IMG/VR virus record: IMGVR_UViG_3300008116_000004
From: a virus
Reading direction: 5' to 3' (one strand)
Length of the DNA stretch: 64,000 bases
Shown piece after piece: positions 29,662 through 32,576 of this stretch; positions within the stretch are counted from its first letter, which is position 1, and each line of letters begins with the position of its first letter. The notes under the pieces were generated by a model that was not told the origin of the DNA, searched no databases, and saw only the letters and a program-made list of their open reading frames with translations. Position numbers and translations under genes: made by a program.

Positions 29662-29692
29662 AAAGCTCTCATCGTAAGGTGAGAGCTTTTTT
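29662..29692 (+). terminator. Rho-independent terminator
   Basis: AAAGCTCTCATC-GTAA-GGTGAGAGCTTT followed by a T-run. Confidence 0.8.
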
Positions 29693-29695
29693 ATT

Positions 29696-29771
29696 TGGTG
29701 CGGTGTACGGGAATCGAACCCATCTCTGGACCTTGAAAGGGTCTTATCCTAAACCGATAGACGAACACCGC
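29696..29771 (-). tRNA. tRNA-Glu(UUC)
   Basis: TTC anticodon, CCA. Confidence 0.9.
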
Positions 29772-29772
29772 A

Positions 29773-29846
29773 TGGCTGGGGGACAGGGACTCGAACCCCG
29801 ATAACAGGAATCAAAATCCTAGGTCCTACCATTAGACGATCCCCCA
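29773..29846 (-). tRNA. tRNA-Gln(UUG)
   Basis: TTG anticodon, U1:A72, G73-CCA. Confidence 0.9.
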
Positions 29847-29852
29847 AAAAAA

Positions 29853-29926
29853 TGGTCCTCCGACAAGGTATCGATCCTTGGTCTCTCGATTATCAGTCGA
29901 GTGCTCTACCTTTGAGCTATCAGAGG
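29853..29926 (-). tRNA. tRNA-Ile(GAU)
   Basis: CTCGA-CTGATAA-TCGAG arm; T-loop ATCGATA. Confidence 0.9.
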
Positions 29927-29927
29927 A

Positions 29928-30002
29928 TGGTGCAAATAGTTGGAGTCGAACCAACCTTAAAAGCCTTATGAGGACTCCTCGACACCTTGCCGACCTACTT
30001 GC
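29928..30002 (-). tRNA. tRNA-Met(CAU), probably elongator
   Basis: CTCATAA loop, paired G1:C72, CCA. Confidence 0.8.
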
Positions 30003-30003
30003 A

Positions 30004-30078
30004 TGGTACCGTCTCCCAGAATTGAACTGGATCTTTCAGAGCCACAATCTGACGTGACTACCACTACACTAAGACGGC
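30004..30078 (-). tRNA. tRNA-His(GUG) lacking G-1, with A73
   Basis: GTG anticodon; acceptor GCCGTCT/AGACGGT-A-CCA; -1 base is T. Confidence 0.9.
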
Positions 30079-30079
30079 A

Positions 30080-30156
30080 TGGAGCTCCCAAGAGGACTCA
30101 AACCCCTAACCTCCACGTCCGTAGCGTGGCGCTCTATCCAGTTGAGCTATGGAAGC
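30080..30156 (-). tRNA. tRNA-Arg(ACG)
   Basis: CCACG-CTACGGA-CGTGG arm. Confidence 0.9.
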
Positions 30157-30159
30157 TTA

Positions 30160-30501
30160 TTAATTGCAGATTGTATTGTAAATCATTTGATCAGCAGCAG
30201 TCTTAATAGAATGAAATCTATCTAACACGTTATAGTTAACTCTTGGAGGATCATCTCTATAACTTTCTATAGCTACTAATGTTTTATACTGCTTGGTAAT
30301 ACAGTCCCACTCTACTTTGGCAAGTAACCATGTACGATCATATCGTAGGAGTTTTTGCCAGACTGTAACTCTATCTGCTAGTTTAATTGTAGGTTGTAAT
30401 ATTTTTATTTGATAATGTTTAGTAGTTTCAATCACTAACCATTCTTCTGCATAAGCAGGTAAATAAAATAACGAAAATAATATAACTAATATTTTTTTCA
30501 T
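30160..30501 (-). CDS. Secreted hypothetical protein
   Basis: MKKILVILFSLFYLPAYA signal; two Cys. Confidence 0.6.
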   Translation of the reverse strand: MKKILVILFSLFYLPAYAEEWLVIETTKHYQIKILQPTIKLADRVTVWQKLLRYDRTWLLAKVEWDCITKQYKTLVAIESYRDDPPRVNYNVLDRFHSIKTAADQMIYNTICN

Positions 30502-30518
30502 TAAATATTTATGTAAAT

Positions 30519-30595
30519 TGGTCTGCCTAGTAGGATTCGAACCTACGACCCCTTGACTCCAAATCAAGTGCGCTACCAGACTGCGCTACAGGCAG
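30519..30595 (-). tRNA. tRNA-Pro(UGG)
   Basis: C1:G72, A73; loop TTTGGAG (A37). Confidence 0.9.
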
Positions 30596-30598
30596 ATA

Positions 30599-30949
30599 TT
30601 AAATTAAATTCTGTGCTAATACCATACAGCTTATCCATACCCATATAGTATTAAACCCTACAAGAGTAGGTAGTAGTTTTTTATTACTAGCCCATATTAA
30701 CGTTAAACTAGTTGCTAAAGTAAAGAAATATAACCACCATATTTGTATATTAAAAATTAAACCAGGAACAATAATGATTGCTTTTGCAAGCCAACTAGCA
30801 AACTCTACTTTGTTATAGTTAGTCCAATATTCTCTAGTAAACCACATCTTATAACAATTTTTAATATTATTAAAACCACTATGACTATATGTTATTGAAA
30901 TACTAATAAACCATAAAATGGTAGCAATAATTATTTGTTGTTGTGTCAT
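30599..30949 (-). CDS. Membrane protein
   Basis: Several hydrophobic segments. Confidence 0.65.
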   Translation of the reverse strand: MTQQQIIIATILWFISISITYSHSGFNNIKNCYKMWFTREYWTNYNKVEFASWLAKAIIIVPGLIFNIQIWWLYFFTLATSLTLIWASNKKLLPTLVGFNTIWVWISCMVLAQNLI

Positions 30950-30960
30950 AATAAATCCTT

Positions 30961-31036
30961 TGGTAGATCCATCCGGACTCGAACCGGAAACCTTTCGGTT
31001 AAAAGCCGCTTGCTCTACCTATTGAGCTATGGATCC
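30961..31036 (-). tRNA. tRNA-Lys(UUU)
   Basis: CTTTTAA loop, CCA. Confidence 0.9.
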
Positions 31037-31091
31037 AAAAGAAAAAGGGGAGCACTAAGCCCCCCTTTATGAACCCATAACGGTGACTTAG
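31037..31091 (-). terminator. Terminator with overlapping alternative (antiterminator) hairpin, upstream of tRNA-Lys
   Basis: Terminator GGGGGGC-TTAGT-GCTCCCC-TTTTTCTTTT; alternative hairpin CTAAGTCACC...GGGGGCTTAG starting 3 nt after the stop of 31095-31349. Confidence 0.7.
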
Positions 31092-31094
31092 ATA

Positions 31095-31349
31095 TTAAGC
31101 AAAAGCTTCTGCACCGAGAACTGCATAACCAGCAGCGACGACTCGACGTGAAGCCTTACCAAGACGGTACTTGTTGGTTACACGACCTTTAGTATCGGTG
31201 TGCTTGTTGAGGTAAATAGGGAAGCCTTCTGAACGAAGAGTATGGATAACTCCACGAGCATTAGCAATTCCAAAGCGAGCAGAAATCTGCTTGCCAGTAA
31301 GTTCTTCACCAGACATAAGAGCTTCGAGGACACGATTAGTAGTAGTCAT
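31095..31349 (-). CDS. Winged-HTH-like DNA-binding protein
   Basis: VLEALMSGEELTGKQISARFGIANARGVIHTLRSEGFPI; GGAG RBS. Confidence 0.65.
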   Translation of the reverse strand: MTTTNRVLEALMSGEELTGKQISARFGIANARGVIHTLRSEGFPIYLNKHTDTKGRVTNKYRLGKASRRVVAAGYAVLGAEAFA

Positions 31350-31402
31350 ATGTTTTCTCCATAATATAGAAATGAGCACTGTGCTCTGTTATTAACATTA
31401 AT

Positions 31403-31431
31403 AATATACGATAGTTACATAATTAATGCAA
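31403..31431 (-). promoter_or_regulatory. Sigma70-like early promoter
   Basis: TTGCAT-N17-TATATT. Confidence 0.7.
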
Positions 31432-31440
31432 CAATAAATT

Positions 31441-31633
31441 AGCGATAGTCTTTTTTGTGTCAGGAAGACTATCAAACCCCGTATAGACAGCCCATCCCAC
31501 GTTTCGTCTATAGCGGAAGCAGAGTATACCGAGCAGGAGGCCCGAGTGGGTCTGCTACTAAACCTCACGCTTTGGTCTAGTTTGTCTGAAATTAAACGAC
31601 TACCCAGGTATGACTACCGTAGTATTCAGATCA
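31441..31633 (-). ncRNA. Candidate structured ncRNA(s) downstream of tRNA-Tyr
   Basis: GC-rich, no credible ORF; stems GATAGTCTT/AAGACTATC, TATAGAC/GTCTATA, AGCAG/CTGCT, TCTGAA/TTCAGA. Confidence 0.55.
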
Positions 31634-31636
31634 AAA

Positions 31637-31721: not shown

Positions 31722-31732
31722 AAAAATTTAAA

Positions 31733-31888
31733 GCTGGGTTACTCATTCCCAGCAGTCGATCTTCAAACGTGTCGACAGGTTCAGGACTTAAGACGTCTGT
31801 GCAGATGGAACCTCAGCCGTCCACTAGCTATATCCTCACTCAATTGCACAGCCATTAGTGAGGGATTAATAGGGATTCCAACCCCTAC
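31733..31888 (-). ncRNA. Candidate multi-hairpin ncRNA between tRNA-Ser and tRNA-Tyr
   Basis: Five consecutive stems: GCTGGG/CCCAGC, GTCGA/TCGAC, AGGTTC/GAACCT, CCTCACT/AGTGAGG, TAGGG/CCCTA. Confidence 0.55.
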
Positions 31889-31893
31889 AATAT

Positions 31894-32063: not shown

Positions 32064-32070
32064 AAACTTC

Positions 32071-32209
32071 TTGTCTCTACAAGGATACATCAGCTATCTA
32101 ACTTCCAATACCACTCGTTATTACAGCTGATTACCGATTCTGGGAAGCCTACCTCTACGTATAGTAATGCGCGCACGCTTCGGGCTCTGATGTACCCATG
32201 AAGAGACAA
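32071..32209 (-). ncRNA. Candidate 139-nt RNA closed by a ~23-bp terminal stem
   Basis: TTGTCTCT-T-CA-T-GGGTACATCAG pairs with CTGATGTATCC-T-TG-T-AGAGACAA; the G-U pair favours the minus strand. Confidence 0.6.
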
Positions 32210-32225
32210 CTTACGTTGTCCTTCT

Positions 32226-32302
32226 GCCCTGCTGGAAACCACTTGTACGCTCATTCGAGTCCACGTACCAGTCAGGGGTTGTTCTTATACACTCGGAACA
32301 AC
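32226..32302 (-). ncRNA. Candidate structured RNA at the 5' end of the tRNA transcript
   Basis: GTTGTTC/GAACAAC hairpin, then nested CCCTG/CAGGG, CTGG/CCAG, GTACG/CGTAC stems. Confidence 0.45.
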
Positions 32303-32312
32303 ATCGATTATT

Positions 32313-32341
32313 AATATAGTAAATTTGCAAATTATAATCAA
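32313..32341 (-). promoter_or_regulatory. Sigma70-like early promoter for the ncRNA/tRNA array
   Basis: TTGATT-N17-TATATT. Confidence 0.65.
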
Positions 32342-32357
32342 CTAAAAAAGGACCATT

Positions 32358-32428
32358 AAAAAAGCGGCTCTAGTTTCCTAGGCCGCTCAACGTTTGTAAG
32401 ACTATAACTATCTAACTTACGTTGAGCG
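32358..32428 (-). terminator. Attenuator: intrinsic terminator (32358-32387) mutually exclusive with a 10-bp antiterminator (32419-32428 pairing 32384-32393)
   Basis: AGCGGC-CTAG-GAAA-CTAG-A-GCCGCT-TTTTT; CGCTCAACGT/ACGTTGAGCG shares AGCG with the terminator 5' strand. Confidence 0.8.
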
Positions 32429-32521
32429 CTCCATATCTTCTGACCATACGCCAGCATTCGGAGCAATCTGTCCGTTAAATGTTTGGCGATAGGTGTGTTT
32501 CAGACACGATAGAGTTAGCAT
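32417..32521 (-). CDS. 34-aa leader peptide containing all 20 amino acids
   Basis: MLTLSCLKHTYRQTFNGQIAPNAGVWSEDMERST*; GGAA upstream; last codons overlap the antiterminator. Confidence 0.7.
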   Translation of the reverse strand: MLTLSCLKHTYRQTFNGQIAPNAGVWSEDMERST

Positions 32522-32568
32522 TTAATGTTCCGTTTTGTAGTGACAAAATGGTATATTACCATTAAATC

Positions 32569-32576
32569 TATTTATA
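32569..32576 (-). promoter_or_regulatory. T4-type late promoter upstream of the leader ORF
   Basis: Perfect TATAAATA about 48 nt upstream of the leader ATG. Confidence 0.75.

Follow-up and report, generated by a model that had tools for sequence, protein, structure and literature searches.

A putative ribosome-sensitive terminator/antiterminator element behind a winged-helix gene in the tRNA array of a T4-like aquatic phage

In the enterobacterial leader-peptide attenuators (trpL, hisL, pheL, leuL, thrL) an intrinsic terminator competes with a mutually exclusive antiterminator, and the position of the ribosome on an upstream leader of 14–30 codons decides which of the two is folded; in the trp leader, a ribosome at the leader stop codon lets the 3:4 terminator hairpin form, and untranslated RNA terminates through 1:2 pairing. 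The products regulated in these cases are biosynthetic enzymes. Why and when phages express tRNAs of their own is still debated; for phage T4, work of the 1980s reportedly placed internal transcriptional control between two tRNA subclusters, and neither an antiterminator hairpin nor a dependence on ribosomes is known to have been reported for them. The effect of a ribosome at the end of a gene on the RNA beyond it has been documented: about 10 nt 3' of the A site are protected; in E. coli, a terminator 5 bp past the stop codon is almost fully repressed and one at 28 bp is about 90% efficient; read-through depends on stochastic ribosome–polymerase coupling (Li et al. 2016, PMC4824070).

The switch element described here, ca. 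60 nt in length, lies within a phage tRNA array and follows the stop codon of an 84-aa gene. That it is a genuine bistable terminator/antiterminator pair we regard as highly probable; how it is used is a matter of graded probability and is discussed below. The window (the whole 64-kb stretch of DNA that was analysed) is part of a T4-like aquatic myophage, gp41 and gp43 of which match cyanophage genes at 72–78% DNA identity; assignment to a T5-like phage was rejected, since the many T5-like records found were matched by tRNA-Lys alone and gp41/gp43 match T4-like cyanophages. The window holds 26 tRNA genes, every one on the minus strand; all coordinates below are those of the window and refer to this strand unless marked (+).

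Three gaps of 170–240 nt between tRNA genes contain neither ORF nor tRNA (31441–31636, 31722–31893 and 32064–32305); the 3' end of the first is formed by a hairpin GATAGTCTT...AAGACTATC followed by GCTAATTT, conserved in L003, L004, L005, L049 and L051. By analogy with T4 species 1 and 2, such gaps may encode stable small RNAs.

The gene, its terminator and the competing hairpin

A sigma-70-type promoter was read from the sequence at 31403–31431: −35 TTGCAT (31431–31426), 17-nt spacer, −10 TATATT (31408–31403); in 17/17 relatives of the clade defined below, a single TTGnnn-17-TAnnnT motif is found 47–62 nt upstream of the start codon, the flanking sequence having diverged. The 5' UTR contains a stem-loop, GAGCA-CAG-TGCTC (31374–31386), at the site of which a hairpin of 5–6 bp is kept in the relatives (L001–L058) with differing sequences: GAACAC/GTGTTC, GGACA/TGTCC, GAGGCA/TGCCT, GGTCA/TGACC; its role may lie in stabilising the 5' end of the mRNA, or it may act as an (autoregulatory) operator. 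Next to it on the 3' side stands the conserved TATTATGGAG, inside which the ribosome-binding site GGAG is located (31357–31360). The gene itself (31095–31349; stop codon TAA, 31097–31095) encodes an 84-aa winged-helix protein matching Pfam HTH_39 (E 1e-5, above cut-off) and phrog_4973, with 530 metagenome homologues at E ≤ 1e-10. Its G+C content is 46% vs 36% for the window; all 8 Arg codons are CGN (window 48%), and AAG serves in 4/5 Lys codons; a codon choice so unusual for the window suggests that the gene is strongly expressed or was recently acquired.

The intrinsic terminator (31037–31068) consists of a 10-bp stem, the loop TTAGT and the U-tract TTTTTCTTTT, the first three T of which close the stem. 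The hairpin AAAGGGGGGC-TTAGT-GCTCCCCTTT occupies 31068–31044, and the T-tract runs to 31037, adjoining the start of tRNA-Lys at 31036; the hairpin energy is −16.7 kcal/mol. The MFE fold of the whole 64-nt region is the terminator together with a small upstream hairpin (−21 kcal/mol, z −3.25). This weak alternative hairpin, ACC/GGT at 31073–31084, is formed between the 5' arm of the antiterminator and the middle segment, and is present in every terminator-state MFE (3 bp here, up to 6 bp in relatives); on the folding evidence it may serve as a pause or "1:2" hairpin.

The antiterminator hairpin extends over 31055–31091: outer helix CTAAGTC (31091–31085) with GGCTTAG (31061–31055); CC (31083–31082) with GG (31065–31064); inner hairpin TTATG/CATAA (31080–31076/31071–31067). 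The segment involved, CTAAGTCACC, begins 3 nt past the stop codon TAA. For a transcript ending at the terminator loop, the long hairpin is the MFE structure (−13.4 kcal/mol), a value matched by only 2/200 shuffles of the upstream spacer segment. It takes up 11 of the 15 nt of the terminator 5' strand and loop; its 3' arm (31065–31055) lies wholly inside these (31068–31054), and the two folds are thus mutually exclusive. Among the four strong intrinsic terminators of the 64-kb window, this one alone has a strong upstream competitor (−13.4 vs −0.6 to −4.8 kcal/mol). The elements named in the original prediction, i.e., an early promoter ahead of an 84-aa HTH-like gene, a strong terminator adjoining tRNA-Lys and a long hairpin that begins 3 nt past the stop codon and sequesters the terminator 5' strand and loop, are accordingly all present.

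Other readings of the complementary segments were considered and rejected. In an H-type pseudoknot (loop CTTAG with CTAAG, stem closed) a connection of only 2 nt would have to bridge 5 bp of helix; in every member, moreover, the C-rich sequence that continues the 5' arm is paired to the G-run. An operator in the form of a DNA palindrome is contradicted by half-sites standing 24–27 nt apart at variable spacing and by G-U pairs, which work only in the minus-strand RNA; a site for RNase III would need a longer and less interrupted helix. A riboswitch or T-box was discarded for want of a conserved core, the hairpin interior varying in sequence and length; the Rfam search gave no match at E ≤ 1 within 31037–31100.

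A 19-nt terminator hairpin, GGGGGGCTTAGTGCTCCCC, is found in identical form behind an unrelated gene in L046 (6920–6938, minus strand) and L048 (5855–5873, minus strand), there without U-tract or upstream partner.

Conservation, covariation and modelled folding

Relatives were collected by protein search of IMG/VR and JGI metagenomes followed by a clade-alignment search; 207 loci with 141 distinct downstream sequences were obtained. The clade set comprised 17 distinct sequences with DNA context, ca. 40 further clade proteins lying outside the comparison. The alternative hairpin was found in all 17 (ca. 64–90% protein identity); prefix MFE: −9 to −20 kcal/mol; terminator 5'-strand and loop nucleotides captured: 9–14 of 13–16; z-scores vs shuffled spacers: −1.6 to −4.7. 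Throughout the clade the locus is arranged in the succession tRNA-Tyr, promoter, HTH gene, terminator, tRNA-Lys; the intrinsic terminator is conserved in all relatives and the U-tract strictly so. Among the other 124 homologues, mostly more distant, a terminator was detected in 55 and a competitor in 0/55 (prefix MFE mostly −1 to −9 kcal/mol), and homologues at or below ca. 65% identity have terminators without the alternative hairpin.

A separate small hairpin within the first 25 nt after the stop codon, followed by an ordinary terminator, is usual in distant homologues and was observed in L009, L012, L013, L016, L017, L030, L125, L139 and L144; the stems of these hairpins are kept, their sequences differ, and the terminator meets no competition from them. 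The switch may have evolved from this two-hairpin layout. A tRNA-Lys gene stands ≤150 nt from the stop codon in 14/17 clade members vs 6/124 other homologues, an association that is phylogenetically confounded; nor is it absolute, as L016 and L125 have the succession HTH gene–terminator–tRNA-Lys without antiterminator. In three lineages (L005, 2812–2889; L053, 1137–1227; L057/L058) the terminator is parted from tRNA-Lys by an insert of 70 to >700 nt, and the inserts have a common (G/A)(T/A)ACATCAG motif near their start.

In alignment A1 (13 sequences) the outer 8 antiterminator pairs were standard in 89% of cases vs 25–55% with the 3' partner slid by 1–3 columns; covariation score: 0.244 vs 0.182 in shuffles, with 0/500 as high. 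In alignment A3, where MAFFT visibly misplaced three of the 17 sequences, the outer helix was 85% paired vs 23–54% when slid, and 3/500 shuffles scored as high; the shuffle controls leave the relatedness of the sequences in place. The terminator stem scored no better than the antiterminator (91% paired, covariation 0.182). Individual changes are as follows: CTAAG/CTTAG is replaced by TTAAG/CTTAA (C-G to U-A) in L058/L135, otherwise near-identical to L053, and a second time in the L054/55 lineage; in L002 the words are CATAG/CTTTG, i.e., one compensated pair (U-A to A-U) and one mismatch; the outermost pair is G-C, A-U or G-U. In L134, a G of the shared strand is changed to A, and C is changed to U in both of its partners, that in the antiterminator 5' arm and that in the terminator 3' strand; this triple change argues for selection on both folds. 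The hairpin interior is not alignable between lineages, differing in sequence and length, and pairing that is kept around such an interior speaks against merely inherited complementarity as well as against a ligand-binding core. The covariation that had been proposed as a check of the hairpin is thus found, together with its conservation.

Co-transcriptional folding was modelled by a coarse master equation with suboptimal structures as states and findpath saddles (k0 2e5 per s, 20 ms per nucleotide); the model is approximate and treats the RNA alone, without polymerase footprint, NusA or NusG. The direct-path barrier from antiterminator to terminator was 8–17 kcal/mol in 13/15 relatives; no barrier value is available from L052 and L132, whose MFE fold is the antiterminator. 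With free RNA, the modelled terminator fraction was 0.00–0.17 at 20 ms after appearance of the terminator 3' strand, and ≤0.14 in 12/13 core members after a 1-s pause (window: 0.00 and 0.10, respectively); 15 control terminators taken from more distant homologues reached ≥0.99 at 1 s under the same conditions, so that the behaviour of a plain, unhindered intrinsic terminator is not matched in the model. Masking of nt 1–13 (stop codon = 1–3) raised the modelled terminator fraction to 0.79–1.0, L051 being an exception; masking of 9 nt only sufficed in 7/7 members tested in this way. Addition of 60 nt of coding sequence upstream left the antiterminator in the MFE of all core members (pair probability 0.75–0.99). 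The terminator-containing fold is the full-region MFE by 2–10 kcal/mol in most members, and in several the modelled terminator fraction climbs over 10 s. According to the model, free RNA is kinetically trapped in the antiterminator and masking releases the terminator; dominance of the terminator regardless of translation, the outcome that would have spoken against the original prediction, was not obtained.

Ribosome position, the downstream tRNAs and alternative readings

Between the stop codon and the first antiterminator pair there are 0–3 nt in 17/17 sequences, across three different C-termini. The outer 5' arm of the antiterminator corresponds in the window to nt 7–13 when the stop codon is counted as nt 1–3; the terminator stem starts 26 nt past the stop codon (22–26 nt in the clade), close to the spacing at which a terminator was about 90% efficient in E. 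coli (PMC4824070). The 5' arm is therefore inside or at the edge of the ribosome footprint and the terminator stem outside it, and a ribosome at the stop codon should remove the competitor and leave the terminator untouched. In a compact genome the hairpin would be expected near the stop codon in any case, and position by itself is weak evidence, since distant homologues too have a post-stop hairpin, there a non-competing one.

Promoters were sought on the minus strand with the relaxed motif TTGnnn-17-TAnnnT. It marks 33432, 32341 and 31431 upstream; nothing was found at 31036–29600 of the window, nor anything conserved inside the ORF or terminator of the relatives, and an internal promoter for tRNA-Lys was rejected on these scans. 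The first gene past the terminator is tRNA-Lys(UUU) (30961–31036, tRNA search), and the rest of the gated block (29696–30949) comprises a 116-aa ORF, tRNA-Pro, a 112-aa ORF and the tRNAs for Arg, His, Met, Ile, Gln and Glu; in L051 the eight tRNAs are contiguous behind the terminator, with spacers of 2–12 nt. Given this contiguity and the absence of a promoter motif behind the terminator, the Lys-to-Glu block, its two small ORFs included, must be transcribed through the terminator. The original claim that the terminator is placed to cut off these eight tRNAs holds, and the separate tRNA-Lys promoter that would have undone it did not appear by motif in the window or in the relatives. At 29662–29689 (+), 7 nt from the end of tRNA-Glu, lies the strong terminator of a converging plus-strand 77-aa ORF; it marks the end of the gated block and may act in both directions.

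A leader-ORF element is situated 1.3 kb upstream in the same array (32358–32576); its leader ORF (32521–32417) ends in a helix of GCGCTCAACGT with ACGTTGAGC that overlaps its terminator. The logic of the present element had been predicted to equal that of this leader, and the layout is indeed the same, with the stop codon at the antiterminator and the helix overlapping the terminator; the accompanying argument, that chance becomes less likely with two such arrangements in 1.5 kb, is a fair one. Just downstream of the terminator of the leader-ORF element an early-type promoter motif was noted, TTGATT-17-TATATT at 32313–32341; judged by this motif, a promoter that bypasses the upstream leader-ORF switch may serve the structured RNA and the genes for tRNA-Asn, Ser and Tyr. 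A transcript started there would skip the leader-ORF gate and would still have to pass the terminator at 31068–31037.

For the element as a whole we favour, at about even odds and by analogy with described attenuators as well as on the modelled folding, an intercistronic ribosome-sensitive transcription attenuator, in which polymerase would read through by default and would terminate if the leading ribosome stands on the stop codon; no simpler mechanism accommodates all the features. Transcription would be initiated at the HTH promoter or at one of the more upstream promoters of the array and would cross the 84-codon gene; the post-stop segment of the emerging RNA would pair with the G-run and loop of the terminator 5' half, and the long hairpin, formed before the terminator 3' strand exists, would act as a kinetic trap, RNA polymerase reading on into tRNA-Lys, the two small ORFs and seven more tRNAs. 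With a leading ribosome that keeps pace, on the stop codon or within a few codons of it, the antiterminator 5' arm would be covered, the terminator would fold and transcription would stop. Tight transcription–translation coupling would then yield few tRNA transcripts, and lagging ribosomes, i.e., poor translation capacity, more phage tRNAs, which amounts to a negative feedback on tRNA supply. Control by ribosomes in vivo, and this control as the selected function, is what we infer.

The HTH gene as a codon-matched sensor of the downstream tRNAs was rejected: codons of the eight downstream specificities make up 33% of the gene vs 36% of the long ORFs of the window, and the sole hint is the use of CGN for 8/8 Arg residues, CGT, CGC and CGA being the codons expected for tRNA-Arg(ACG) with inosine at position 34. 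With no such enrichment, the gene, if a sensor, would report general coupling and not the supply of one tRNA. It is, as had been stated at the outset, an ordinary gene and not a dedicated leader: its product is a conserved HTH_39 protein with several hundred homologues, and regulatory codons are not enriched in it. We tentatively propose, with somewhat under even confidence, that a full-length regulator gene serves here as a codon-unspecific "coupling gauge", the polymerase–ribosome lag at the stop codon deciding the transcription of eight tRNA genes. Over 84 codons, ribosome and polymerase may fall too far out of step for the regulation to be useful, and "runaway" transcription in the host, if present, would let the antiterminator always win.

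The main rival reading, rather unlikely though to be weighed seriously, is that the terminator is constitutively self-disabled, polymerase always reading through and ribosomes having no regulatory part. The terminator hairpin would then refold later as the thermodynamic minimum and, after RNase P cleavage at tRNA-Lys +1, stabilise the 3' end of the HTH mRNA; in a variant of this reading the element merely sets a fixed, tuned leak. Slow refolding is what the energy advantage of the terminator fold leads one to expect, and the rise of the terminator fraction over 10 s in the model conforms to it, as do the U-tract adjoining the RNase P site, the lack of codon matching between sensor gene and tRNAs, and the circumstance that tRNAs without a promoter of their own must be expressed somehow. 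A leak would, however, be obtained more simply with a weaker hairpin or a shorter U-tract, and a stabiliser needs no U-tract at all, yet the U-tract is strictly conserved; moreover, the HTH gene with its good ribosome-binding site is surely translated, so that by geometry a stop-codon ribosome must melt the 5' arm at least sometimes, and the triple covariation points to selection on both folds.

Read-through set by a factor is improbable. One conformer would have to be bound by a small RNA or by a protein of the phage or the host, perhaps the product of the winged-helix gene, in the manner of the protein-dependent attenuators TRAP, PyrR and BglG/SacY or of the L4–S10 system; switch and HTH gene are co-inherited in one clade, the HTH gene stands at the same place in many tRNA arrays, and the antiterminator retains a YGG motif in its apical part. 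Beyond the paired arms, however, the hairpin interior varies freely in sequence and length and offers no conserved binding platform; Rfam gave no match at the site, HTH_39 is a DNA-binding fold, and homologues of the protein are widespread without the switch. That the complementarity has no function, being a by-product of a C-rich spacer beside a G-rich terminator that was inherited among close relatives, is very improbable: although the clade is fairly shallow, the words CTAAG/CTTAG are common to many members and the shuffle controls leave relatedness in, the pairing has been kept (85–89% against 23–55% in slid registers) while the interior diverged past alignment, several independent compensatory and wobble changes are seen, the z-scores against shuffled spacers are negative in all clade members, and the other strong terminators of the window lack such a competitor.

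Comparison with known systems

The predicted ribosome-sensitive attenuator resembles the enterobacterial leader-peptide attenuators in the pairing of an intrinsic terminator with a mutually exclusive antiterminator, in the decision between folds by the position of a ribosome on an upstream ORF (predicted here), and in the sense of the response, a stop-codon ribosome favouring termination as in trp under Trp excess; the small upstream hairpin could serve as a pause or 1:2 element. It differs from them in that a short leader is replaced by the full-length gene of a conserved 84-aa DNA-binding protein without a regulatory codon run, in that the whole antiterminator is placed beyond the stop codon, in that untranslated RNA is predicted to read through, whereas that of trp terminates, and in that tRNAs are regulated in place of biosynthetic enzymes.

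With the gene-end terminators of Li et al. (PMC4824070) the element would share the ribosome that covers ca. 10 nt 3' of its A site and thereby governs downstream folding; there the ribosome blocks the terminator and lowers termination, whereas here, with the terminator 26 nt past the stop codon, it is the antiterminator that would be blocked, and termination would rise.

The tRNA array of phage T4 is similar in its T4-type origin, in its interruption by small ORFs and in termination inside the array. Literature searches, which left aside the 1980s papers on the T4 subclusters, gave no report of such control of phage tRNA genes; ribosome-mediated attenuation of tRNA genes with a full-length protein gene as sensor would, if true, be an undescribed case. 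The state of translation in the infected cell would then directly govern how much tRNA the phage makes. Attenuation would need no dedicated leader peptide, any translated gene being a possible sensor, and the search for such switches would widen from 5' leaders to the 3' ends of genes.

A close counterpart is the leader-ORF element 1.3 kb upstream, which belongs to the same array, likewise sets a terminator against an antiterminator located at the stop codon, and presumably has a like purpose, more tRNA when ribosomes lag; it uses a dedicated mini-ORF, whereas an ordinary gene without codon matching is used here. If both operate as proposed, the tRNA array would be under two tiers of translation-feedback control.
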